Assembly (NCBI GenBank): GCA_016203945.1
Contig: JACQLT010000001.1
Coordinates: 6,645-70,644 of the forward strand
Length of the DNA stretch: 64,000 nucleotides
DNA from: Parcubacteria group bacterium
GTDB taxonomy: Bacteria > Patescibacteriota > Minisyncoccia > Minisyncoccales > UBA10102
Reading direction: 5' to 3'
The position numbers were made by a program, and so were the translations under genes. Within the stretch, counting starts at the first letter, position 1. Each line of letters begins with the position of its first letter. Under the pieces are notes generated by a model. The model saw only the letters and a program-made list of their open reading frames with translations. It searched no databases and was not told where the DNA came from. Below are positions 4,768 to 56,109 of the stretch, one piece after another.

Positions 4768-4796
4768 ATGGTATCGTGAAATATGATATAATGCAA
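4768..4796 (-). promoter_or_regulatory. murA promoter, leaderless type
   Basis: TTGCAT-17-TACCAT then 6 nt to ATG. Confidence 0.5.
4784..4792 (+). promoter_or_regulatory. extended -10 for PEGA gene, leaderless type
   Basis: TGaTATAAT, 7 nt to ATG 4800. Confidence 0.5.
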
Positions 4797-4799
4797 CAG

Positions 4800-5918
4800 A
4801 TGACCAAACGCACGAGAACTCTTCTCTTTTTCTCTTTGGTGCTGCTTTTCTCCGTGGTAGCTCCAGCCCTCATTTTGTACTCGTTGGGGTATCGCGTTGA
4901 CTGGCAAGAAGGAAGTATTGCCCAAACAGGAGGCCTTTATATTAAAACGGATCCTGCCAATGCCGTTATTTCTATCAATGGCAAGCAAGAAAAGAAAACT
5001 GATTTCCTCTTCGGCGAGCTTTTTGTGGATAACCTGCTTCCCGGAACCTACGCGGTGAAGATAGAAAAGGAAGGATACAAGCCCTGGCAGAAAAATCTTG
5101 TAGTACAAGCAAAGCAGGTGACGGAGGCGAAAAATATCATGCTATTTCCAGCCCAGACCGCCCTCAAAACACTGTTTGATTCTGTCGAGGAGGTATGGCC
5201 ATCTCCCGACTTGAACCTCCTCCTGCTTCAGCAAACATCCCCCCAAAGAGAAAGACACCTCTTGCTCTGGAACCCCAGAACCAACAAAGAGACCCCTGTA
5301 ATACAGCGGCTCACTTTTACTCAGAAAATCCAAAGCGTTCAATGGGATAAAAACGGAAAGGCCTTCCTTGTCCAGTTCCAGAAAGGAGGAGGCCAACCCC
5401 TGGTATTTAATGAGCAGGGAGAACCCTGCAAGGAATCTTTCTGTCTTGAGAACATTCTCAAGATTCAGCCCACGGACCAAGAAAAATTTCTTTCTGCCGC
5501 AGAAGAATCCTTGCGGCAGATTTTTCCTCAGATACAAGAACGAGCGCTCAGCCCTGATGAAAAGAAAATAGCCCTGACACAGGGTTCTGAGCTCTGGCTC
5601 CTCTACCTTCAGGACGACGAAGGTCAGCCCAAAAGAACTAAAGGAGAGCGGGTATTCTTAAGCAGGTTTGGAGAACAGATACAGAACCTTTCTTGGGTGA
5701 GCAACCACTATCTTCTATTGGGTATTGGCGGCGACGTTCGGATCGTAGAGATTGATGACCGAGATTCTCTGAATACGATCTCTTTGGGCTCATTCCCTGC
5801 CTTGCCTGCCTCGCCGGTAGGCGGGCCAAACCTTCGTATTTTCTGGGACAACAAAGAAAAAGTTATCTACATCCTGGGCAACGGCATCCTCTCGGTTTCA
5901 GAAAAACTCCTCCGATAG
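4800..5918 (+). CDS. membrane-anchored PEGA-domain protein
   Basis: N-terminal TM helix then PEGA-like block (YIKTDPANAVISINGK...LLPGTYAVKIEKEGYKPW); ATG 4800 preferred over GTG 4776 because TGaTATAAT lies 7 nt upstream. Confidence 0.6.
   Translation: MTKRTRTLLFFSLVLLFSVVAPALILYSLGYRVDWQEGSIAQTGGLYIKTDPANAVISINGKQEKKTDFLFGELFVDNLLPGTYAVKIEKEGYKPWQKNLVVQAKQVTEAKNIMLFPAQTALKTLFDSVEEVWPSPDLNLLLLQQTSPQRERHLLLWNPRTNKETPVIQRLTFTQKIQSVQWDKNGKAFLVQFQKGGGQPLVFNEQGEPCKESFCLENILKIQPTDQEKFLSAAEESLRQIFPQIQERALSPDEKKIALTQGSELWLLYLQDDEGQPKRTKGERVFLSRFGEQIQNLSWVSNHYLLLGIGGDVRIVEIDDRDSLNTISLGSFPALPASPVGGPNLRIFWDNKEKVIYILGNGILSVSEKLLR
5796..5825 (+). repeat. hybrid A/B-like 30-nt element in plus-strand PEGA gene
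   Basis: cctgccttgcc (first 11 nt of family B) + tgcctcgccggtaggcggg (family-A-like hairpin); encodes PALPASPVGG. Confidence 0.45.
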
Positions 5919-5987: not shown

Positions 5988-6437
5988 CTACCGTTTCCTC
6001 CACTGCGTGGCGCGGCGGGCTCGGTGAAGTCCGAACTTCTTGCGCTCGCGCATGCGGGGATCTCTCGTTAAGAATCCAAGCGCTCTCAAGCGGCTTCTCA
6101 GCTCGGGGTCTCCTGCGACAAGAGCACGAGCTACGCCGTGACGGATGGCTTCTGCCTGAGCTGGCAATCCCCCGCCCTTCGTCAACACCTTCACCAAGAA
6201 AGAATCTTCTGTGCCGGCTTTTTCCAAAGATTCCTTGGCTACCCGCTGGAGTTCTGAATCCTGAAAGTATTGCTCCACCGGTTTCTCGTTCACCGTGAAT
6301 TTCTGCTCTTTAGTTTTTGAGGATGTAGGCCAAAGACGGACACGCGCCGTTGCGGTCTTTCTCCGTCCTACCCCCTCCAGATATTTGCCTGCCTGCGCAG
6401 GCAGGCCTTCTTTGTTGGTTTCTTTCTGCGCCGCCAT
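5988..6437 (-). CDS. rpsI: 30S ribosomal protein S9
   Basis: C-terminal ...GGGLPAQAEAIRHGVARAL...RKKFGLHRARRATQWRKR; start at MAAQKE (alternative 6452). Confidence 0.9.
   Translation of the reverse strand: MAAQKETNKEGLPAQAGKYLEGVGRRKTATARVRLWPTSSKTKEQKFTVNEKPVEQYFQDSELQRVAKESLEKAGTEDSFLVKVLTKGGGLPAQAEAIRHGVARALVAGDPELRSRLRALGFLTRDPRMRERKKFGLHRARRATQWRKR
6387..6406 (-). repeat. family B short variant (perfect 20-nt palindrome), rpsI copy
   Basis: gcctgcctgcgcaggcaggc; encodes (G)LPAQAG. Confidence 0.7.
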
Positions 6438-7188: not shown

Positions 7189-7980
7189 TACCTTCTTCTT
7201 TGAAACCCGCTTCTTTCCGACAGCCGTTTTCCCCGCCTTGCTGCGAGGCAGGTTTGTCTTCTTCTCTTTCTTTTCCTCGGAGGGAGACGTTTCCTCTCTG
7301 CTCAGCCCTTCTCCGATGCGCTGGAATTGCCCCTGGAGGGTTTCGATTGCCTGCGCCAGGGCTGCTGTAGGAGTAAGCGCGCCGTCGGTCTCAATCTCTA
7401 GAATGAGCCGGTCAAAGTCGGTTCGCTCCCCAACACGCATGGCTTCCACCCGGAAGCTCACACGCCTGACAGGAGAGAAGACGGCGTCCAGGGCGATTGC
7501 TCCGATCTCTTGTTTTTCGCCTTTGCGCGCCTCCACGGCCACGTATCCGACGCCTCGCTCAATGCGCAGTTCCATGTCCAGCTCCGCGTGCTTATCCTGC
7601 AAGGTAGCGATGGCCATATCCTTGTTTATCACCTGAACCTCAGAGGAGGTTTTGATATCTCCTGCTTTTACCTTTTTCTCTCCCTTTACCTTGAGGGTCA
7701 CCGCCTGAGGTTCGTCTGAAAACATGCGAAAGCGCACCTGCTTGAGGCGCAAAAGAATGGTCACTACATCTTCTGTAACTCCGGGAATGGCCGAAAACTC
7801 ATGGGCAACACCCTTGATCTTCACCTGAGTAATGGCTGCTCCCTGCAAAGAAGAAAGGAGCACCCGCCTGAGCGTGTTCCCAACGCTCACTCCATATCCA
7901 GGATACAAAGCTTCAATCTCAAACACTCCCTTGTTCTCTGTCTGTTGCACTGTTTTTGCTGGTTGTGGAAGAGGAATCAT
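7180..7980 (-). CDS. rpoA: DNA-directed RNA polymerase alpha subunit, N-terminal domain plus Lys-rich tail (no alpha-CTD)
   Basis: alpha-NTD similarity over about 225 aa; ends in SREETSPSEEKKEKKTNLPRSKAGKTAVGKKRVSKKKVLK. Confidence 0.85.
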   Translation of the reverse strand: MIPLPQPAKTVQQTENKGVFEIEALYPGYGVSVGNTLRRVLLSSLQGAAITQVKIKGVAHEFSAIPGVTEDVVTILLRLKQVRFRMFSDEPQAVTLKVKGEKKVKAGDIKTSSEVQVINKDMAIATLQDKHAELDMELRIERGVGYVAVEARKGEKQEIGAIALDAVFSPVRRVSFRVEAMRVGERTDFDRLILEIETDGALTPTAALAQAIETLQGQFQRIGEGLSREETSPSEEKKEKKTNLPRSKAGKTAVGKKRVSKKKVLK

Positions 7981-9000: not shown

Positions 9001-9390
9001 TTATGTGGGTGTTGCTGCGGGCTTCCTGCCAGATCCTACTGTTTTTCGTACGTTCCCTCGCACCGTCCTATTATTGGTCTTGGTACGCTGTCCGCGAGTC
9101 GGCAATCCCCTGCTGTGACGCATACCTCTCCAGGATCCGATCGCCTTCAGACGCCTGACATTCATGAGAATCTCTCTGCGCAGCTCTCCTTCAATCTTGT
9201 AGTTCTTCTCAACGTATTCTTTCAGACGGTTCAATTCGTCTGATGTGAGCTTTCCCACCTTCGTTTCCGGGGCGATACGAATCGCCTTGATGATATCCTT
9301 ACTCAACGCAGGACCCACTCCGTAAAGGTATCCTAACGCAATGTCCACCCGTTTATTGTCCGGCAATTGAATGCCGAGAAGTCGTACCAT
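9001..9390 (-). CDS. rpsM: 30S ribosomal protein S13
   Basis: MVRLLGIQLPDNKRV..., S13-like 129 aa. Confidence 0.92.
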   Translation of the reverse strand: MVRLLGIQLPDNKRVDIALGYLYGVGPALSKDIIKAIRIAPETKVGKLTSDELNRLKEYVEKNYKIEGELRREILMNVRRLKAIGSWRGMRHSRGLPTRGQRTKTNNRTVRGNVRKTVGSGRKPAATPT

Positions 9391-9444
9391 ATCGCTATGC
9401 GATATATCAAGTAAAGTTTGTTATAAAAAAATAGCAACTTGTTT

Positions 9445-9849: not shown

Positions 9850-11118
9850 CTAGAGCGAATCCAGTCCCAGAGAAACATTGATGCGATTAAGATCAGTCGG
9901 AACTCGCCACTCCCAAAAAGGCCAAAGGGAAATAGCGAGGTTCTTCACCCCCTCTGTGGCTTCTCCCTGCCTGATTGCCATATCCGGAGCTTTCCCCTGG
10001 ACCCTGAGGGCAACATCCTGTTTTTGCACTGTCGCATACGCTTTTCCCTTTGAAAATCCTGCCAGCAGCAGAGCTCCCTTCTTGTGATCCACGTTCTTGA
10101 ACGTATACCCGCTCTGCACGGTCCTTTCAAGAATCGTTTCTCTTAGAGATAGCTCCTTTTGCATCGACCGGCTCAAAAAATCGTTGAGCGCGCTCCTGGA
10201 AAACGCTATCGCCAAAACCCGTACTTTTCCCGTCACATTGAACTGGCTCAGTTCAGCTCCCGCCTTTGCCAAAGAAGAGGTCTGCGATGACTCCACCAGA
10301 AAGGCGTCTTCCGGAATCTCATAGCCTGCAGGGAGCTGTTTTCGCAGTTCCTGTTTTGCCTGCTCCCTGAGCTCAGTTGCAATCATATCTTTGCCCCGGT
10401 CAAGATCATCCTGCGCTACGACCGTTGTTTCGCTTTTGGATCCTCCTGTCATAGGAGCTGACGACTTGCCGTAAATTGCGGTGTACAAGACAGAACCTGC
10501 AAGTCCGGGAAGTGAAAAGCTAGAAGGCCCGATATTGTAATCCTCCCCCGCTTCTGCGGCAACCACGTCAACATTCAGGGATCCGGGATCTCCGCCCTGA
10601 ACGGCTCCCTGTATCACCACGCGAGCCGTTGAGCGGAACAGCTTTCCGTCTTGGGAGACAAAGCGAGTGTTTGCGACAAGGATTTGGGGCGTGCTTGGCC
10701 TCGTATTGTATACGGTGATCACCCCTCGCGCCTGCCCTTGTTTGCTGGATTTCCCGGTTGCGGAAAACAGCCGCGTGCCGTCTTGTTGTTTTGTCAAAGG
10801 AAGCGCTTCGATAACTTCTCCTGCTTGCGCAGGCAGGATGGCTTCTTTCTTTGCGGCCAGAACCTCCTGCTCCACGAAAACTTCCCTGGAATCCGGGGTC
10901 ACCCTAATCGTTGCTTTTGCGGCAAAGAGATGGATGCCGAGTACGGAGACGAACACGAGACACAACGCTAACGCCGATAATACAAAAGACCTCGGGAGCT
11001 TACGACGAGGTTTCTGCGGCTTTGAAGGAATAAGAACCGGGGAAACCACAGGAACAGCCGGGGGCTTTTGTCGCGCGCCAGAGCGCGGAGTGATGTCAAC
11101 AAGTCTTCGATTATTCAT
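9850..11118 (-). CDS. membrane-anchored hypothetical protein (possibly baseplate-J/gp47-like fold)
   Basis: Basic Pro-rich N-terminus, one TM helix, large extracytoplasmic part; block RFVSQDGKLF...VDVVAAEAGEDYNIGP resembles baseplate J family. Confidence 0.4.
   Translation of the reverse strand: MNNRRLVDITPRSGARQKPPAVPVVSPVLIPSKPQKPRRKLPRSFVLSALALCLVFVSVLGIHLFAAKATIRVTPDSREVFVEQEVLAAKKEAILPAQAGEVIEALPLTKQQDGTRLFSATGKSSKQGQARGVITVYNTRPSTPQILVANTRFVSQDGKLFRSTARVVIQGAVQGGDPGSLNVDVVAAEAGEDYNIGPSSFSLPGLAGSVLYTAIYGKSSAPMTGGSKSETTVVAQDDLDRGKDMIATELREQAKQELRKQLPAGYEIPEDAFLVESSQTSSLAKAGAELSQFNVTGKVRVLAIAFSRSALNDFLSRSMQKELSLRETILERTVQSGYTFKNVDHKKGALLLAGFSKGKAYATVQKQDVALRVQGKAPDMAIRQGEATEGVKNLAISLWPFWEWRVPTDLNRINVSLGLDSL
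10820..10837 (-). repeat. family B short variant, hypothetical-gene copy
   Basis: cctgcttgcgcaggcagg; encodes LPAQAG. Confidence 0.65.
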
Positions 11119-11156: not shown

Positions 11157-13034
11157 TTAGGAAGTTTTCAAAAGATGTCCGCGAATTCTCCGCACCCCGG
11201 CCGATACCGCTTCCTGTTTTCCGATGCGGAATCCCCCCACCTCTCTTGTGTGCTGCACGTGAGGGCCTCCGCACAGTTCTCTGGAGAACACGTCTCCTGT
11301 CTCAGGATTTCGGGCGGAATACACTTTCACCACGTCAGGATACTTCTCTCTCGGGGAATACAGAGCTCCCAAAGCTACCGCTTCCTGAAAGGGCATTTCC
11401 TTATATCCCATATCAAGATTCTGGCGAATCGCTTCGTTCACCAAGAACTCTATTTGTCGCACCTCTTCATCCGTCAGCTTCCGATCAAACGTAAAGTCAA
11501 AGCGGGTGCGTTCCGGGGTGATGTCAGAACCTGCCTGATGCACGCTTTCCCCTAATACCTTGCGCAGGGCAGCCTGCAGCAAATGGGTTGCCGTATGCAA
11601 ACGCGTGACAACCTTCAGTTCCTCCTCGTTCGCCGCCTTCAGCTCTCCCGTATCTAGTAAGAGCCCATGACCTCCGAACTTTCGCTCTTTCCCTGCTCTT
11701 GAAATTTCCTGATGTTTTCGAAATTCCTCATCAAATTCTTCCCTATCAATAAAAAGTGCGTGTTCGGCTAACAATTCGTTAATGAGCTCTAGTGGAAATC
11801 CATAACTCTGATATAAATCAAATGCTTCTTTTGGAGATATAGCATTGATGGTATAGGCAGACTTTTTACGAAGGTTTTTCGGAGGCCATCTAACAGCATA
11901 TTTTTTTTTGTTCTTTTCTCTTGATAAAAGCTTCTGAAACTCTGTAAGGCCCTTTTCAAGAGTCTTGCTAAATCTATCTGTCTCTTTCTGTAAAACTTCT
12001 AAAATAACCGACTTTTCTTCTCGTAAATTATTATAGTCAGGAACCTTACCATATATTCGTATGATTTCTTCTGCAGGACTTAAATAAAATTTTGAATCTA
12101 ACCCAGCTCCGATGTACTTATAGTGATTAAGCATGGCTCGCCTTATTAATCTCCGCAAAATATAACCCGCTTCTTTATTTGAGGGTCTTATTCCGTCTCC
12201 GATCAAAAATATACTGGCACGTAGGTGATCGGCAATAACACGGAGCTTTTCTATTGGTTTATCTCCAATAATTTCAATGATTGAACTGAAAATTGACATA
12301 AACAAATCTGTCTCGAATATATTCTTCTTGCCTTGGACAACCATCGCCAGTCTTTCTAACCCCATGCCGGTATCTACTCCCGGCTTCTCTAGCTTCCGCA
12401 ACTTCTTGTCCTTTGAGCAGTAGTACTCGTTGAATACGATGTTCCAGACCTCGGTGTTGTTGATATAGAGCTCGGTAGTGGGACCGCAGGGTCCCTCAGC
12501 TCCTGTGGGCCCCCAGAAGTTGTCCTCTCTCCCCTCCTCTCTGATATCCTTGACGCCAAGCTCACTCCAGAACTTTTTTGACTCCTCATCTCTGGGAACC
12601 TCCTTGTCTCCCCCGAACACGGTCACATACTGAATCTTCAACCCAATTTCTTTCAAGAACTCATGGGCAAGCCGTATCGCCTCCTCCTTGAAGTATCCGC
12701 CAAAAGAGAAGTTTCCAAGCATCTCAAAGAAGGTGAGGTGGGTCTCGTCTCCGACGCTGTCAATGTCTGAGGTGCGGAAGGATTTTTGAATGGATACCGC
12801 GTTCCTGCTTCCCAGGAACTTCCCTCCCAAGGTTTGATGAGGAGAAGACATGGGATCTGCCTCTCCCGTGTAATAGGGCTTAAACTGCTGCATGCCTGCC
12901 GTGGTAAGAAGCACAGAGGCGTCATCTGGAACCAAAGAAGACGAGGGCACAATGGTGTGCTTCCCGCCCGTGGCGGGTCCGCCTTGGGCGGAAAAAAACT
13001 CCAAAAATCTCCTGCGCAACTCCTGCGACTCCAT
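11157..13034 (-). CDS. alaS: alanyl-tRNA synthetase, short form (625 aa, no C-Ala domain)
   Basis: TAGMQQFKP, FEMLGNFSFGGYFK, GMGLERL, editing-domain HTATHLL and CGGPH motifs. Confidence 0.9.
   Translation of the reverse strand: MESQELRRRFLEFFSAQGGPATGGKHTIVPSSSLVPDDASVLLTTAGMQQFKPYYTGEADPMSSPHQTLGGKFLGSRNAVSIQKSFRTSDIDSVGDETHLTFFEMLGNFSFGGYFKEEAIRLAHEFLKEIGLKIQYVTVFGGDKEVPRDEESKKFWSELGVKDIREEGREDNFWGPTGAEGPCGPTTELYINNTEVWNIVFNEYYCSKDKKLRKLEKPGVDTGMGLERLAMVVQGKKNIFETDLFMSIFSSIIEIIGDKPIEKLRVIADHLRASIFLIGDGIRPSNKEAGYILRRLIRRAMLNHYKYIGAGLDSKFYLSPAEEIIRIYGKVPDYNNLREEKSVILEVLQKETDRFSKTLEKGLTEFQKLLSREKNKKKYAVRWPPKNLRKKSAYTINAISPKEAFDLYQSYGFPLELINELLAEHALFIDREEFDEEFRKHQEISRAGKERKFGGHGLLLDTGELKAANEEELKVVTRLHTATHLLQAALRKVLGESVHQAGSDITPERTRFDFTFDRKLTDEEVRQIEFLVNEAIRQNLDMGYKEMPFQEAVALGALYSPREKYPDVVKVYSARNPETGDVFSRELCGGPHVQHTREVGGFRIGKQEAVSAGVRRIRGHLLKTS
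12963..12992 (-). repeat. family A 30-nt in-frame double-hairpin element, alaS copy
   Basis: cccgcccgtggcggg|tccgccttgggcgga; encodes SAQGGPATGG. Confidence 0.8.
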
Positions 13035-18041: not shown

Positions 18042-18783
18042 ATATTCCTTTCCAAAGGTTAATCCTGATTTTCAATACTTCAAGCAGCATCTTTATCATG
18101 CCAGACAGCTTCACCCTGCTATTGGGATCATTGATCCATCTGACCGGAATCTCTTGTATTTTGTATTTGCGTTTCTTCGCCAGGACGAGAATTTCTACGT
18201 CAAACGCCCACCTGTCAATAGTGGCCCGCGAAAACAATTCTTCCGCCGCCTTTCTGGTAAATCCCTTAAACCCGCACTGCGTGTCCCATATGCCCCAGAG
18301 GCCCGAGATGGTCTGGACGATGAGGTTAAAGATATCTCCCAGGCGCATCCGCAGCCAAGACTGGGGCACAGGAAGCTCGGCTCCCTTGATGTCGCGGGAA
18401 CCAATGACCACCTCAAATCCCTTTTCTCCGCCAGAGGCGGACCCGCCTTGGGCGGGAAACCATGGCCACATTCGTTCCACCTGATCTACCGAAGTTGAGT
18501 TGTCGGCATCCATAAACAGGCGAAAGTCCCCGTGCGCAGCCAGCATGCCCTGTTTTACCGTGTATCCCTTTCCACGATTCTCCTTGCGATCAATAAGCCA
18601 AAGATTCTTGATAGATTCCGCCGCCTGCCGCACCACGTCTGCCGTGCTGTCTTTGGAGCCGTCGTTCACCACCAGAATCTCGTATTTATAGGATTGCCTC
18701 CTCAAGTATTCATCCACCGCCTTCAAGGTATTCGGAAGGCGCTCTGCCTCGTTGTATGCGGGAATAATAACAGATAATCGCAT
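18031..18783 (-). CDS. family 2 glycosyltransferase (dolichyl/polyprenyl-phosphate hexosyltransferase-like)
   Basis: SVIIPAYNE, VNDGSKDST, DADNS motifs. Confidence 0.8.
   Translation of the reverse strand: MRLSVIIPAYNEAERLPNTLKAVDEYLRRQSYKYEILVVNDGSKDSTADVVRQAAESIKNLWLIDRKENRGKGYTVKQGMLAAHGDFRLFMDADNSTSVDQVERMWPWFPAQGGSASGGEKGFEVVIGSRDIKGAELPVPQSWLRMRLGDIFNLIVQTISGLWGIWDTQCGFKGFTRKAAEELFSRATIDRWAFDVEILVLAKKRKYKIQEIPVRWINDPNSRVKLSGMIKMLLEVLKIRINLWKGIYER
18427..18456 (-). repeat. family A element, glycosyltransferase copy
   Basis: tccgccagaggcgga|cccgccttgggcggg; encodes PAQGGSASGG. Confidence 0.8.
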
Positions 18784-27332: not shown

Positions 27333-27716
27333 TTATTTTCCGCCAGAGGCGGATCCGTCTTTGGCGGACTTTCCTTCTGCTGACGCAGCTGTGGTTGCTG
27401 CCGCTGCCGCCTGTTGCCCTTGCTCAAGTTCCTTCTGGATCCTTCCTCCATGCTTGCCGAACTTAGTGGAGGGAGAAAACTCTCCCAACCTATGGCCTAC
27501 CATTTCTTCAACCACGAGCACGGGAATAAAATCCTTCCCGTTGTGCACGCCAAAGGAAAATCCGATCATGTCGGGAGTGATGGTAGCAGCCCTGCTCCAG
27601 GTCTTTATCACGGTCTTGCCTGCCTTGCCGTCAGGCAGGTCCCCTGACTTGAGCTTTTTGACCTTGAGCATGAGCTTCTCGTCTATATACGGGCCTTTTT
27701 TGAGTGATCGAGCCAT
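27333..27716 (-). CDS. rpsS: 30S ribosomal protein S19 carrying two in-frame hairpin elements
   Basis: MARSLKKGPYID...TWSR...VHNGK...EMVGHRLGEF; 7-aa LPDGKAG insertion and Ala/Gly-rich C-terminal extension. Confidence 0.92.
   Translation of the reverse strand: MARSLKKGPYIDEKLMLKVKKLKSGDLPDGKAGKTVIKTWSRAATITPDMIGFSFGVHNGKDFIPVLVVEEMVGHRLGEFSPSTKFGKHGGRIQKELEQGQQAAAAATTAASAEGKSAKDGSASGGK
27339..27368 (-). repeat. family A element, rpsS 3'-end copy
   Basis: tccgccagaggcgga|tccgtctttggcgga; encodes SAKDGSASGG just before stop. Confidence 0.75.
27619..27639 (-). repeat. family B 21-nt in-frame hairpin element, rpsS copy
   Basis: cctgccttgccgtcaggcagg; encodes LPDGKAG; identical to 44222-44242. 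Confidence 0.85.
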
Positions 27717-30314: not shown

Positions 30315-30359
30315 CTGGCTTCCCGCTCATCCTTGACTCAGTCAAGGATGAGTCAAGGA

Positions 30360-30698
30360 TTAGACGGTTTTGATTTCGATGTCTACTCCGGCCGGCAAAT
30401 TGAGGTTTCCTAAGGCGTCGATGACTTTGGGATTCGGATTAAGAATGTCTATGAGGCGCTTGTGCACTCTCATCTCAAACTGCTCCCGAGCATCCTTGTG
30501 CACGAAGGAAGAGCGGTTGACGGTGTATTTCTTGATCTCGGTGGGAAGGGGTACGGGACCTACGATTTGACATCCCTGGCGCAAGACGGCTTCCGCGATC
30601 TGCTTGCAGGAAGCGTCAATAACCTTGTGGTCGTATGCCACAATGCGGATTCGTAGTTTCTGTGAAAGAGCTTCTTTTTCTGCCCGCTTTGCCACCAT
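30360..30698 (-). CDS. rpsJ: 30S ribosomal protein S10
   Basis: [15 protein letters not shown]...GPVPLPT. Confidence 0.93.
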
Positions 30699-34319: not shown

Positions 34320-34414
34320 TCGCTTCGCTCCTTAATAACCTTCGGTTTTTAATATTTTTCCACCACGGGAGGATACCCAATCCTCCCGACCCCTCCTGTG
34401 ATTTGCTCATTTCA

Positions 34415-34879
34415 CTAAGCGAAATGAGCAAATGCTCTGTTGGCGTCTGCCATGCGATGCACGTCTTCCTTTTTCCTGAACGCCGTCCCCTCCTTCTTGG
34501 ACGCGAGTAAGATCTCTTCTGCGAGCTTCTGGGCCATGGGCTTTCCCTTCTGGGAACGGGCGGCTCCAAGAAGCCAACGCAATGCCAAACTGAACTTCCT
34601 GTTCCCCTTCACCTCAACCGGCACCTGGTAGGTTGCTCCTCCAATGCGGCGGGACCTCACCTCCACAAAAGGAGAAATATTCTCCATCGCGAGCTGAAAT
34701 ATTTCCAGGGGCTCTTTTTTGCTCTTCTCTTTGATCAAGGCAAAAGCTCCGTACACGATCTTTCTCGCAACGGATTTCTTTCCCCGTTCCATGACATGGT
34801 TGATAAGCTTTGAAACGATCACATCTTGGTATATGGGGTCTGGGTGGATGAGCCGGGGGGGTGTTTTTCTGCGAGCCAT
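34415..34879 (-). CDS. rpsG: 30S ribosomal protein S7
   Basis: MARRKTPPR...ANRAFAHFA. Confidence 0.95.
34419..34434 (-). repeat. 16-nt direct repeat copy A (rpsG 3' end)
   Basis: gcgaaatgagcaaatg; pairs with inverted copy 34401-34413. Confidence 0.9.
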
Positions 34880-35997: not shown

Positions 35998-36026
35998 AGT
36001 ATATCGCAAAACGATATATCAAGCAA
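35998..36026 (-). promoter_or_regulatory. M50 gene promoter, leaderless type
   Basis: TTGCTT-17-TATACT, 8 nt to ATG. Confidence 0.45.
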
Positions 36027-36044
36027 GGCTCGCTATAGCACGGC

Positions 36045-42676: not shown

Positions 42677-44319
<1,643 letters not shown>

Positions 44320-52545: not shown

Positions 52546-53261
52546 GGAGTAATGATAGTGCCTTCAAAGGATTTTCCGTCAATGGCGGCCTTGAAGCTTT
52601 TCAAATCCGCTGCCTTAAAAATTTTTGCGGTGAGCGAGAGCTTTTCTGCCAGGCGCGTGGCAACCGGGTCCACGGGAGTAGAAAGTCCAGGGACCCACGT
52701 CCGCGGAATAAGTTTTTTGTAATTGCTCCAGGAAATTCTCCTGATTGGCTTTGCCTTTGAGTTTTTTCTCGGGTCGCTGTCGTGCACAAATGAGGTGTCT
52801 TTTGCAATGATGACGTCTCGGGCATCGAATTTCTGCGCAAGCCGCACTGCGATATAGTCGGTTGACCATCCGGGCCTCCAGCCAGAAGCAAAGAAAATCT
52901 CCCTGTTTGAGTGCTTCATCATTTCTACTTCTTCTTCCAAAGGATCGTGATCAATAACTATAGGATATGCTTCTTTCACGAAAATCGTTCTCAATAAATG
53001 AGCGTTTAGGCGCGTAGCGTGAATGCCGATCCAGTCAAGATCCCAATCAGAAACCTTTTTTACCTTGTTAGCCGACTCTTGATATACCCTGCATATCTTG
53101 CCCCCGCCCACGACAATGACAAAGCGTTTGCCTTTACCAAGCTGTCTGCGCATGAATATGAGGAAGTCCCTCAAAAAAGCGGTGTTGATTCCGCCTTGGT
53201 CTGAAAGATGGGGAACAACCGCAGATCCCCCCAAATGGATGACAATGTACGAGGATTTCAT
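52542..53261 (-). CDS. pyrH: amino-acid-kinase family protein, archaeal-type UMP kinase-like
   Basis: IHLGGS, VIVVGGGK, TTDY-like WSTDYIAVRLA, final GTIITP resemble archaeal PyrH. Confidence 0.6.
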   Translation of the reverse strand: MKSSYIVIHLGGSAVVPHLSDQGGINTAFLRDFLIFMRRQLGKGKRFVIVVGGGKICRVYQESANKVKKVSDWDLDWIGIHATRLNAHLLRTIFVKEAYPIVIDHDPLEEEVEMMKHSNREIFFASGWRPGWSTDYIAVRLAQKFDARDVIIAKDTSFVHDSDPRKNSKAKPIRRISWSNYKKLIPRTWVPGLSTPVDPVATRLAEKLSLTAKIFKAADLKSFKAAIDGKSFEGTIITP

Positions 53262-54103
53262 GATCGGGAATATTGTAGCATAAATTTTGCCAGACCCTTC
53301 TTTTTGAGCTCCTGATGAAGCTTATAGTACCCGCACCATTCTTTGGAGCATATCCAGGACTCCGCGGGATGCAGGCAGTAGAATACGTTATGCTTTACGG
53401 CTTCCAAGATGGCATGCGCAGCCCGAAGCACCGTCGCATAGTTGTGCGCGGGACGCTGTACCTGGAATCGCACGATCCTGGAATCTTGTTTTGAGAATAC
53501 GATGTAGTCCTTGCTTATCCCGCGAACGGGCTTTCCCTTGAGCCGCAAGAATGCCTCCTGGTAAATTGAGATCTGCGGATCGTTATTGATATCCTGCCAG
53601 CTGGGCGTGCGGCGCGTGGTCTTCATCTCGTGGATGACGTGGCTCGTGTCGGAAAGATCAATCCTGCCCACCATTTCCAGGCCCTTGCCCGCGGGAAAGT
53701 TGAACGCGGTCTCCACGAGATCCGGCTTGATCTTGGGCTCCAATTCTTTGTAATAGACGTCTATGCCCCTGGCCCCCGTAAGCAGGAGGTTCGGTATGCT
53801 GCTCTTGCGCTCCTTTGCGAGGTATTCTTTCGTGAGAAGCGCGCGGGATTGCTCCATTTCAATCTCATAATCTTCCAGTGCCGATTGGAAAATCCCCGCG
53901 AAGAAATCCTTCGCGTCCCGCGCCTTCACGCCTTTCCGATCCAGTTTTTTCTGCTCAAAATGGTAGGCGAACGTCTCATGCAAGGCAAAGCCGTGCTTCT
54001 GGGCTTTGGTCGGAGGCCGCCTGATACCCAAGACGTAGCGAAACAGAAAATGTTCCGGACATCGCACATAGACCATCAATTGACTAAAGCTTATATGTTT
54101 CAT
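53258..54103 (-). CDS. PD-(D/E)XK nuclease, RecB/Cas4-like with Cys cluster
   Basis: GRIDL...IHEMKT (D...ExK), QISIYQ, Cys at VRCPEH plus C-x8-C-x4-C near C-terminus. Confidence 0.65.
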   Translation of the reverse strand: MKHISFSQLMVYVRCPEHFLFRYVLGIRRPPTKAQKHGFALHETFAYHFEQKKLDRKGVKARDAKDFFAGIFQSALEDYEIEMEQSRALLTKEYLAKERKSSIPNLLLTGARGIDVYYKELEPKIKPDLVETAFNFPAGKGLEMVGRIDLSDTSHVIHEMKTTRRTPSWQDINNDPQISIYQEAFLRLKGKPVRGISKDYIVFSKQDSRIVRFQVQRPAHNYATVLRAAHAILEAVKHNVFYCLHPAESWICSKEWCGYYKLHQELKKKGLAKFMLQYSRS

Positions 54104-54134: not shown

Positions 54135-54914
54135 TCATTTGTCTTTCTTTGCTTTTTTTCGAAAAGGAGTAAGCGCCGTCTGCACCGCCTCCCGGTACGT
54201 GCAGAATTCGCACTCTGCTCCTGCGCGCGGAAGCTCGTCTTGCATCAAAGTCAGCTTCGCCTGTTTGAGCATATCCCCAACCCAGGAATCGTCTCCCTTG
54301 TATGGGATGACTTTCACGTCAAACTCAAGCTTTGCGTCAAACGCCTTGGCGTCCGCTTTTCCGTTCACGTATACGAAGTATCCTACTGGCGAAACCCTGA
54401 ACCCGTTCTTCCGCATCAGCCATTGGTAGATTTCAATCTGGCGCTTGTACCCCTGCTGCCAGTCGGCGTCAATGTTCACCTCCCCGTTCTTTGCGGTTGC
54501 CTTGTAATCAACGACGTGCAGCTCTCCTGCCGCGTTCTCCCAGATATCGTCCACTCCTCCCGTCACCAGAAAATTCGTTTCAGGATCAAGATATCGCACT
54601 CCCTTGAAGGGGTCTCTCCACTCGTCCATGAGCGCGTGCTGAAAAGGGACCGCCTCAATACCGTAGGCCTCCATGAGAGGATGGGGGGTGGCGCTCGCGC
54701 GATGTCCGTCAAACTCCTTTTTCAAGAGCGTGTCCACGGCGGCGTTCAGACTGAATGGGTACCCGGGGGGCTGGTCTACGCCGAGGCGGCGGTCGATATA
54801 AAAGCATCTGGCGCATTTGATGAAATTATCCAAACGGCTCCTGCTTAGAACAAAGGGTTCCTTGGAAGCTACGTCAAATACGTTTTTTTTCCGTTTTCCT
54901 GGGTAAAAGACCAT
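54135..54914 (-). CDS. PD-(D/E)XK nuclease family protein (second, distinct)
   Basis: GGVDDIW...VVDYKAT (D...DxK), QIEIYQ, CARC and CEFC pairs; start MVFYPGK. Confidence 0.6.
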   Translation of the reverse strand: MVFYPGKRKKNVFDVASKEPFVLSRSRLDNFIKCARCFYIDRRLGVDQPPGYPFSLNAAVDTLLKKEFDGHRASATPHPLMEAYGIEAVPFQHALMDEWRDPFKGVRYLDPETNFLVTGGVDDIWENAAGELHVVDYKATAKNGEVNIDADWQQGYKRQIEIYQWLMRKNGFRVSPVGYFVYVNGKADAKAFDAKLEFDVKVIPYKGDDSWVGDMLKQAKLTLMQDELPRAGAECEFCTYREAVQTALTPFRKKAKKDK

Positions 54915-54930
54915 ATAGTTGTATTTTACC

Positions 54931-56109
54931 TTATGCCGTCTTTGTGACCAATACTGACTTTGCAAAAAATAACGAGCTCCCTATCAAAAACAGAGCTCCC
55001 AGAAGAAATTGGCTATGGATGCCAGCTGCATTGATGAGAAATCCTCCTACGAGCGGCCCTATGACTCTTCCTAACGACTCAAAAGAAAAGGCAAGGCCCA
55101 TGGTGGTTCCCTGCCCCTCTCTTGTTCCTTTGGAAAGGAGCGCGTTTACCGTGGGCCGCATTAATGCGGATCCCAATGTGGAAACTGATACGAATAAAAA
55201 CAGAATCCCAAGATTTGGAGCATATGAAATAAGCGCTTGTCCTGCTGCCATGCCAAGGCCGCCCGCAATGATCGTGCGAAACTCACCAAACTTTTTCACT
55301 ATAAAAGGCAGAAATACCCATTGCACAAAGGCGGCCACGCTTCCCATCCAGGCAAACACCACTCCGATTTGCTGCTCATGGAACGACAGCTGCTGCTCTG
55401 CAAACAACGGAAACCCTACCTCCAGATTCGCCAGGGCGAATGCCCAGGCAAAGAGCATAAAAAACAGAGTTCCAAATTCTCCCCTAAATCCGTGAAGGAT
55501 TGCTTTCACGTTAACCAATCCTTCTTTTAATACAAGCTTCTCTGCTTTTGCGGTCAGGGATTCGCGCAAGAAAAAGAATATGAACGTTGCGTTTAAAAAG
55601 GCTAATATGCCTGCTGCCACAAAAGGAAATGCGGGCGCAAAACCCGCCAACAGTCCGGAAGCTGCGGGCCCCACGATAAATCCCAAGGCAAAAGTCGCAG
55701 TCAGTCTACTCATATACGTCACTCGCTCCTCTTTTGAAGTGCTGTCTCCGATGTAGGCAGCGGCAATGGGAAATACCCCAGAAGAAAATAATCCGTGCAC
55801 CGCGCGCGCGATGAAAAGCCAGAACAAAGAGGGGGCGAGTCCAAACGCCACAAAGGAACCCGCGGTCCCTAAAAGAGCTACTACAAGCACGGGTTTTCTT
55901 CCATATCTGTCGGAGATGCGACCTACGATGGGTGAGACCAAAAACTGGGTGATGGAAAAAGAAGCTGCTAAAAATCCCAGCTGCAAAGGGGTGGCCCCGA
56001 AGTGCTGGGCATAAAAAGGCAAAAGCGGGAATACCATTCCGTATCCCACGATGGTGATAAACGCCGCTAAATATAAAAAAAGAAGGCGATGCCCCAAAAA
56101 TCTTTTCAT
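54931..56109 (-). CDS. MFS transporter
   Basis: 12 TM helices, GRISDRYGRKP motif. Confidence 0.85.
   Translation of the reverse strand: MKRFLGHRLLFLYLAAFITIVGYGMVFPLLPFYAQHFGATPLQLGFLAASFSITQFLVSPIVGRISDRYGRKPVLVVALLGTAGSFVAFGLAPSLFWLFIARAVHGLFSSGVFPIAAAYIGDSTSKEERVTYMSRLTATFALGFIVGPAASGLLAGFAPAFPFVAAGILAFLNATFIFFFLRESLTAKAEKLVLKEGLVNVKAILHGFRGEFGTLFFMLFAWAFALANLEVGFPLFAEQQLSFHEQQIGVVFAWMGSVAAFVQWVFLPFIVKKFGEFRTIIAGGLGMAAGQALISYAPNLGILFLFVSVSTLGSALMRPTVNALLSKGTREGQGTTMGLAFSFESLGRVIGPLVGGFLINAAGIHSQFLLGALFLIGSSLFFAKSVLVTKTA

Follow-up and report, generated by a model that had tools for sequence, protein, structure and literature searches.

Yeast mitochondrial GC clusters are organellar elements of 30-50 bp for which short target duplications have been reported. 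Rickettsia palindromic elements (RPEs) are about 100-150 bp long, are restricted to Rickettsia and its relatives, and are said to have been described by Ogata et al. in 2000. Among sequences that recur as signals, DUS/USS are invariant short sequences that lie inside genes in favoured frames, and parS is a low-copy palindrome common to phyla, whose sites cluster near the origin and bind ParB. In REPs, the end of the stem-loop bears a conserved GTAG or CGTC tetranucleotide (PMC3733652). Some REPs lie wholly within ORFs and add residues to the protein (Di Nocera et al. 2013, PMC3733652), and RPE-4 and RPE-6 are mentioned in the same paper (PMC3733652).

Here we analyzed a short palindrome in the ribosomal protein gene rpsI of a Parcubacteria group bacterium. 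The window, that is, the whole stretch of 64,000 nucleotides that was analyzed, is a CPR-type segment of 51% GC that carries ribosomal operons and the genes for EF-Tu/EF-G and ATP synthase. Full-text searches for the sequences and peptides, together with topic searches, found no description of this palindrome in the literature. The nearest described kinds are REPs, including intragenic REPs (Di Nocera et al. 2013), Rickettsia palindromic elements and yeast mitochondrial GC clusters.

Results

The palindrome in rpsI and a second copy in the window

The palindrome, the unit within it, the second copy and the two host genes are as follows.

6387-6406, no strand: perfect 20-nt palindrome GCCTGCCTGCGCAGGCAGGC, arms of 10+10 with zero spacer
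6388-6405: inserted 18-bp unit CCTGCCTGCGCAGGCAGG in S9, flanked by G (-1) and C (+1); minus-strand translation (G)LPAQAG, in the N-terminal tail
5988-6437, minus strand: rpsI (ribosomal protein S9), the host gene; ATG likely at 6437, just past the rplM stop
10820-10837, no strand: second 18-bp copy CCTGCTTGCGCAGGCAGG, plus strand CCTGCTTG...; one mismatch; LPAQAG is residues 95-100
9850-11118, minus strand: gene for a 422-aa membrane-anchored protein, host of the second copy

The first-pass annotation had described the perfect 20-nt palindrome in an N-terminal extension of S9, the second copy in the 9850-11118 gene and the reading LPAQAG for both, and all three descriptions held. The palindrome and its position agreed with the sequence and with structure alignments, the second copy was present with one mismatch, and the codons of both genes gave LPAQAG: CTG CCT GCG CAG GCA GG in S9 and CTG CCT GCG CAA GCA GG in the 422-aa gene, the mismatch (CAG>CAA) being synonymous on the coding strand. 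The N-terminal peptide of S9 reads MAAQKETNKE-GLPAQAG-KYLEGVGRRK, and the peptide around the insert in the 422-aa protein reads KKEAI-LPAQAG-EVIEAL. Solved S9 structures align with the query only from about residue 20 onward, so the copy lies in an extension at the N-terminus that is not part of the conserved fold. In the 422-aa protein the insert lies in a linker between a transmembrane helix and a weak GlxA beta-barrel match at residues 130-182, the sole recognisable domain of the protein.

Apart from the one at 6387-6406, the whole window holds no GC-rich zero-loop palindrome with 10-bp arms. No dinucleotide-preserving shuffle (0 of 100) contained any arm-loop-arm match, and the window held two matches to the 18-mer at three mismatches or fewer against 0.03 expected from shuffles; these counts exclude a chance origin. 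The octamer CAGGCAGG occurred 10 times in the window against 2.55 expected. As RNA, the 18-mer would form a hairpin with a GC stem of 7-8 bp at -15.8 kcal/mol, and the folding energies of the hairpins ranged from -15.8 to -21.6 kcal/mol.

The conserved core of S9 contains LPAQA as well, in the motif GGGLPAQAEAIRHG (GGGLPAQAEA, 6148-6170), which uses other codons, matches the palindrome at 13 of 18 nt and could be mistaken for a third copy. Intragenic duplication of the core LPAQAE was rejected as the source of the insert: the two are written in different codons, with 15 of 21 nt identical, and the 18-mer is CPR-wide, and for these two reasons we regard the shared LPAQA as a coincidence.

Filled and empty sites among orthologues

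DNA alignment of the 5' ends of rpsI showed a clean 18-nt gap in L002 and L005/L006 relative to the window, L003 and L004, and a check at the codon level agreed. The filled site AAAGAAGG[CCTGCCTGCGCAGGCAGG]CAAATAT and the empty site AAAGAAGACAAATAT differ by exactly 18 nt. S9 relatives of 74-91% identity split into a filled group, with the peptides GLPAQAG, GPPAQAG, GPPAQAR, GEPGRAS and NLSVQTG, and an empty group (P0004, P0005, P0008, P0009, P0010 and P0011); the insert was absent from all more distant S9 proteins compared. In the 422-aa gene, exactly 18 nt were missing from six of eight close orthologues (71-80% identity), the syntenic one in L001 among them; the copy in P0246/L278 carried a different single mismatch than that of the window, in the same codon phase. 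At neither gene did filled and empty sites differ by a target duplication; the difference was the unit alone. Judged from these alignments, the S9 and 422-aa gene copies are clearly insertions of a discrete 18-bp unit.

It had been suggested that S9 orthologues be examined for absence of the hexapeptide, and that a conserved LPAQAG motif written in divergent codons would refute the observation. As expected at first pass, S9 proteins of 77-91% identity were found to lack both LPAQAG and exactly 18 nt, and with these orthologues and six of the eight of the 422-aa protein being without the insert, LPAQAG was ruled out as a conserved peptide motif.

In a tree of the S9 core, filled and empty sequences were mixed inside two clades (bootstrap 98% and 94%), which requires several gains or precise losses. 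Filling of the same site in separate lineages was seen in S9, the 422-aa gene and S19, and hot-spot insertion, an old polymorphism with repeated precise loss, and homologous recombination all fit it. Decay of the S9 copies was evident in L003, L272 and L001. The L004 copy ACCTGTCTGTGCAGACAGGT kept nine pairs through two double transitions, and its peptide is now NLSVQTG. This pairing hints at structural constraint or correction of the palindrome, but it is only suggestive (p of about 0.05 by a rough estimate); clean double changes occurred in L004 alone, and the alignment of L001 was ambiguous. The extra residues in S9 of P0008 come from an unrelated 12-nt tandem duplication, GAAACCAAGAAA (ETKK-ETKK, L273:2081-2130), in the same N-terminal tail, indicating that the tail tolerates other indels.

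Distribution and reading frame of the 18-mer

The exact 18-mer CCTGCCTGCGCAGGCAGG occurred in at least 120 stretches of species-representative genomes, against about 9 expected in 596 Gb at uniform composition; our collection counts for the 18-mer and for family B (below) are lower bounds. Taxonomy of the 18-mer carriers was taken from record titles. Among the matches listed, 71 of 120 (about 60%) bore CPR or Patescibacteria labels, from more than 20 named groups in many classes, and 8 of 120 were unclassified 'bacterium' records. The CPR groups included WWE3, Microgenomates, Woese-, Gottesman-, Shapiro-, Beckwith-, Dojka- and Saccharibacteria, and also Kaiser-, Nomura-, Uhr-, Yonath-, Zambryski-, Wildermuth-, Magasanik- and Staskawiczbacteria and Paceibacterota. 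The other carriers among the matches listed were mainly Bacteroidota, with some Gammaproteobacteria-labelled MAGs and some GC-rich genomes, in which a chance match is likelier. One Sphingobacteriales MAG accounted for six of the listed stretches, with seven copies, and two carriers were cultured isolates, Litoribacter ruber and Rosettibacter primus (Bacteroidota, Ignavibacteriota).

Many 18-mer loci had a GC content of 32-45%, CPR carriers included genomes of 32-40% GC, and the flanks were unrelated, being shared among only 5 of 125 copies. Because the same GC-rich codons occur in unrelated proteins of AT-rich genomes, selection on the peptide cannot explain the identity of the 18-mer. Stop-free stretches of at least 120 codons contained 83 of the 125 copies, which were read as LPAQAG in 58 cases (70%), as PACAGR in 15 and as CLRRQ in 10. 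Copies were sparse: 880-970 kb of sequence around them held just five further perfect and six one-mismatch copies, and the density of the element was about one per 30-170 kb. Only 5 of the 120 listed loci had two copies within 8 kb, kilobases apart, the copies being otherwise singletons, and one 598-kb contig carried three unclustered copies at about 41, 151 and 344 kb.

In IMG/VR, 25 stretches contained the 18-mer, most of them in phages of 58-67% GC, and no copy of the family B 21-mer was found. A phage vector was rejected, since the viral 18-mer copies were mostly intergenic or plausible chance or terminator hairpins and family B was absent there.

An association with tRNA genes was also rejected: 11 of 154 18-mer copies had a tRNA no more than 500 nt away, where about 4 were expected, and the excess was driven by one type of tRNA-Gln locus together with the scarcity of non-coding DNA. 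At that locus type, five Paceibacteria-type genomes carry the 18-mer at a fixed spot (..GGRTCR, 18-mer, TCTAATGGTAGGA..) of a duplicated tRNA-Gln 5' fragment that lies upstream of the intact tRNA-Gln.

L033:1725-2105: tRNA-Gln-fragment locus
L116:385-765, minus strand: tRNA-Gln-fragment locus
L043:3530-4013: tRNA-Gln-fragment locus
L044:6725-6935, minus strand: tRNA-Gln-fragment locus
L048:360-487: tRNA-Gln-fragment locus

Three of the five carry, between the fragment and the intact tRNA-Gln, either a small ORF of the GIY-YIG type, which is degenerate in L116, or one for an HNH endonuclease. These loci look like a homing-endonuclease cassette aimed at tRNA-Gln, in which the palindrome would disrupt the leftover copy of the target.

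Family B and loop variants

Four further copies in the window belong to a related unit with a 7-nt loop, family B, which encodes LPDGKAG.

27619-27639, minus strand: family B 21-bp unit CCTGCCT-TGCCGTC-AGGCAGG (plus strand) in rpsS (S19); LPDGKAG, 7-nt loop
44222-44242, minus strand: family B 21-bp unit near the N-terminus of atpD (F1 beta subunit); LPDGKAG
5805-5825, plus strand: decayed B-like copy in the PEGA-domain gene 4776-5918; four mismatches, read in the opposite orientation as PASPVGG
7232-7252, minus strand: decayed B-like copy in the C-terminal tail of rpoA; four mismatches, LPRSKAG (NLPRSKAGK)

The copies GCCTGCCTTGCCGTCAGGCAGG at 27618-27639 and 44221-44242 have the arms CCTGCCT/AGGCAGG of the 18-mer, so that the sharing of arms with the LPDGKAG element noted at first pass was correct for both; the flanks of the atpD copy add an outer stem of 6 bp. 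The two decayed copies, with four mismatches each, compare with 0.1 expected in the window. All four B-type copies point the same way along the chromosome. At the B sites S19 and AtpD are six to seven residues longer than their solved homologues, and S19 relatives of 88-90% identity lack the insert.

The B 21-mer CCTGCCTTGCCGTCAGGCAGG was present in at least 120 metagenome stretches, on host contigs mostly of 30-45% GC. Among the matches listed, copies in ORFs of at least 150 codons were in the sense orientation (the LPDGKAG strand) in 52 cases and antisense in 6, and at a cut of 120 codons 52 of 62 copies read LPDGKAG. Intergenic B copies showed no such bias relative to neighbouring genes (10 in the same and 12 in the opposite orientation), so that the bias within genes comes from selection on the peptide and is not inherent in insertion; a replication-strand cause was rejected on the same grounds.

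The same S19 site carries CCTGCCT-ACCGGAC-AGGCAGG (LPTGQAG) in a distant lineage and CCTGCCT-GCCGGCA-AGGCAGG (LPAGKAG) in a Giovannonibacteria genome (CP066687.1), that is, three loops at one site in three lineages. Further loop variants were sporadic. In logos of 154 18-mer and 106 B copies, both families had a purine at -1 (80-92%) and a pyrimidine at +1 (about 78-80%), with no pairing preference between these positions. The rule also held in non-coding copies, so that a codon artefact was rejected and the rule is a property of the element or of its target. Given the same 7-bp arms, the same flanks and several loops at one S19 site, the 18-mer and family B are therefore loop variants of one superfamily that is defined by its arms and has unit lengths that are multiples of three.

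In the sampled loci, about 1.55 Mb in total, the two families were never found together, and no orthologous site among those compared showed conversion between 18-mer and B. Deletion from B within this genome is thus unsupported, and the first-pass view of the LPAQAG copies as a deletion derivative of family B was not upheld: the 18-mer is an invariant family of its own (at least 120 genome stretches), and B is separate and similarly widespread.

Neighbourhood of the copies

Stems of 7 bp or more flanked 6% of the 18-mer copies (0.9% in controls) and 14% of the B copies (1.6% in controls). Some copies, most of them intergenic and most from outside CPR, are nested in the loops of other hairpins, for example at the following loci.

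L149:5621-5668: nested copy
L133:6058-6105: nested copy
Many B loci, e.g. L171, L184, L214, L225 and L233: nested copies

The host hairpins are widespread repeats of the types TTCCCGC..GCGGGAA and TTCCGAA-ACAAG-TTCGGAA, and the nested 18-mer or B copy adjoins one arm of the host hairpin directly.

We compared 786 ORFs lying no more than 400 nt from copies at about 240 loci by all-against-all BLAST, and no gene family recurred beside the copies. No transposase or RAYT was seen in the part of the window that was covered, ten unassigned proteins by Pfam and further sequence by eye.

Several other features of the window were observed. The repeat CCGCCAGAGGCGGAyCCGyCTTkGGCGG, two tandem hairpins with 5-bp stems, occurs at 12960-12991, 18424-18455 and 27336-27367 and is probably what the first-pass annotation called family A; its copy at 27336-27367 encodes a C-terminal tail of S19 (..KDGSASGGK), and of 18 aligned S19 relatives just 3 carry such a tail. 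Two copies of a 37-nt sequence, ATATCGCnnnnCGATATATCAAGnAAnGnTnGnTATA, occur in direct orientation at 9389-9425 and 36001-36037, upstream of rpsM and of another operon, and this repeat is possibly a shared promoter or operator. Long AT-moderate hairpins with stems of 12-13 bp at 30326-30360 and 34401-34433, near the start of the S10 operon and downstream of rpsG/fusA, are candidate attenuators or terminators. Adjoining genes at 53258-54103 and 54135-54965 encode PD-(D/E)XK (PDDEXK_1) nucleases.

Discussion

Like REPs and REPINs, the 18-mer is a short GC-rich stem-loop palindrome without coding capacity of its own. It differs from them in several respects. The 18-mer and B carry no GTAG or CGTC tag but only the purine and pyrimidine at -1 and +1; at 18-21 bp they are at or below the size range of REPs; they are present in few copies per genome and mainly within genes, whereas REPs number in the hundreds and are mostly extragenic; their sequence is identical across phyla, whereas REP families are species-specific; and their copies are singletons, whereas the mobile unit of REPINs is a doublet of inverted REPs. 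The gene for RAYT, a Y1 transposase, is flanked by repeats, and none was seen beside copies of the element in about 240 loci from partial genomes; CGTC-type REPs are without an identifiable transposase (PMC3733652).

With RPEs the element would share the character of palindromic selfish DNA that lies in frame in genes, essential ones included, of small gene-dense genomes, where surface regions tolerate it. In-frame insertion and absence from orthologues, as in RPEs, were found for the element in S9, the 422-aa protein and S19. Unlike RPEs, it is 18 or 21 bp long and occurs in many phyla, with hosts that are mostly CPR. Yeast GC clusters are similar in being GC-rich palindromic mini-elements of AT-rich genomes, with presence/absence polymorphism, a mobilising activity that is not known and in-frame copies in a ribosomal protein gene, var1, but their sequences are unrelated to the element. 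MITEs exceed about 50 bp and have terminal inverted repeats and target-site duplications, from which the bare 18 bp differ.

Exact insertion of 18 or 21 bp, absence from orthologues, decay, a wide distribution of identical copies, a frame bias and a flank rule are the observations that we seek to explain. In the reading that we propose, the palindrome represents one copy of a miniature hairpin DNA element, non-autonomous, selfish or neutral and REP-like, which is moved in trans and filtered by selection on the peptide, and we consider this reading probable, if by no great measure. The unit, a purine, CCTGCCT-GCGC-AGGCAGG (18 bp) and a pyrimidine, would go in as a discrete piece with no evident target duplication. 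Since its 18 bp are six codons, insertion into a gene would never shift the frame, and the unit is free of stops in every frame, so that just six residues would be added. Surviving copies would lie mostly in tolerant loops, linkers and tails of proteins, and mostly within genes because CPR genomes are gene-dense and most of their DNA is coding. Selection would purge the readings rich in Cys or Arg (PACAGR, CLRRQ), leaving mostly LPAQAG, and later substitution decay or precise loss would produce the presence and absence seen among close relatives. Copies decay, yet perfect copies are common across phyla, which argues for continuing production of new copies. Spread as selfish or neutral DNA would presumably depend on a trans-acting enzyme specific for hairpins or palindromes, perhaps a single-strand transposase of the HUH/Y1 type, or a structure-specific nuclease acting with repair. 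In all likelihood neither S9 nor the 422-aa protein derives any function from the palindrome.

Against the reading as an element stand the failure to find a mobilising gene beside the copies or among the window proteins scanned, the lack of target-site duplications and the low copy number. In the classical REP/RAYT system each species has its own REP, unlike the one sequence seen here across phyla, and to our knowledge single hairpins of 18-21 nt are smaller than any element shown to transpose. Filling of the same site could moreover mean a hot spot, long-lived polymorphism, recombination or selection at those sites, and the pairing kept by the L004 copy is a slight hint of structural constraint. 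If the palindrome were instead a selected nucleic-acid signal, such as a candidate site for a dimeric DNA-binding protein (a parS-, NBS- or matS-like site that organises the chromosome, or an operator) or a structured RNA motif recruited into many genes, then its spacer-less symmetry, which suits binding of a dimer better than an RNA hairpin, the symmetric flank rule without pairing preference, the invariance across phyla at low copy number as with parS, and the retention of the L004 arms through two double changes would all be accounted for; so would the two 18-mer and four B-type copies in a 64-kb window rich in ribosomal operons. We nevertheless consider a signal unlikely. The sites arise as 18-bp indels, absent from close relatives with the same gene order, whereas parS sites arise by substitution; copies decay freely; family B combines the same arms with an asymmetric 7-nt loop, which a dimer of fixed spacing would not accept; the unclustered state of the three copies on the 598-kb contig is a hint in the same direction; and many copies of other phyla are nested inside other hairpin repeats. 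The hairpin might also be filler that repair takes, by copying or ligation, from an abundant cellular or phage-borne source (a small RNA or DNA, for instance) and places at double-strand breaks or at nicks in hairpin loops, with no transposition from copy to copy. This would agree with the exact unit length, the unrelated flanks, the missing target duplication and the low copy number, and with the fixed spot shared by the five tRNA-Gln loci, where the GIY-YIG or HNH ORFs of three lead one to expect breaks. No conserved 'master' context was seen, however, and flanks were common to only 5 of 125 copies; we know of no such templated repair in bacteria, and we rate this origin slightly below that of a signal.

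The remaining explanations are weaker still. Derivation of both LPAQAG copies from LPDGKAG copies in this genome by a 3-nt loop deletion, as proposed at first pass, appeals to the identical arms, the 3-nt difference in length and the presence of both families in the window, but going from the loop TGCCGTC to GCGC takes more than a simple deletion, 880 kb around the at least 120 other genome stretches with the exact 18-mer held no B copy, and the filled relatives at the S9 and 422-aa sites were all 18-nt versions and never 21-nt ones, making this derivation very improbable. CPR bacteria encode competence machinery, and a short sequence common to many taxa that lies within genes with a frame bias could be a DUS/USS-like signal enriched by biased uptake in competent CPR cells. 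DUS/USS, however, occur about once per kb, roughly 100 times more densely than the one per 30-170 kb found here, and are born of substitution, whereas the element arises as indels and not by point mutation; we give this idea even less credence. That LPAQAG is a functional peptide motif, or that the copies are a chance or low-complexity match, we regard as almost certainly wrong: LPAQA does recur in the conserved S9 core, but orthologues lack LPAQAG, unrelated proteins from genomes of 32-55% GC encode it with the same codons, and shuffles gave 0-0.03 matches.

A bolder form of the proposal for a mobile hairpin is that the 18-21 bp unit (CCTGCCT/AGGCAGG with a variable loop) is the smallest known mobile DNA unit, currently active throughout CPR and in several phyla besides, with a conserved putative enzyme that recognises the arms and moves it in trans, and that it is shaped, as a multiple of three that is stop-free and encodes the loop-friendly LP...AG, for life inside essential genes. 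We put this forward tentatively, as a possibility against which we would still wager.

If the hairpin is indeed a mobile element, streamlined CPR genomes would host ultra-short selfish insertions that repeatedly add six or seven residues to essential proteins, including such conserved ones as S9, S19, RpoA and the ATP synthase beta subunit. Indels of this kind are homoplastic and can mislead CPR alignments and marker-gene phylogenies, and they can make 'CPR-specific insertions' in ribosomal proteins seem commoner than they are and give rise to spurious peptide motifs. One and the same 18-bp sequence recurs across phyla in few copies and must have some agent that inserts it, so that the search for a new hairpin-specific DNA-inserting activity becomes directly testable; the carriers Litoribacter ruber and Rosettibacter primus offer cultured experimental systems.
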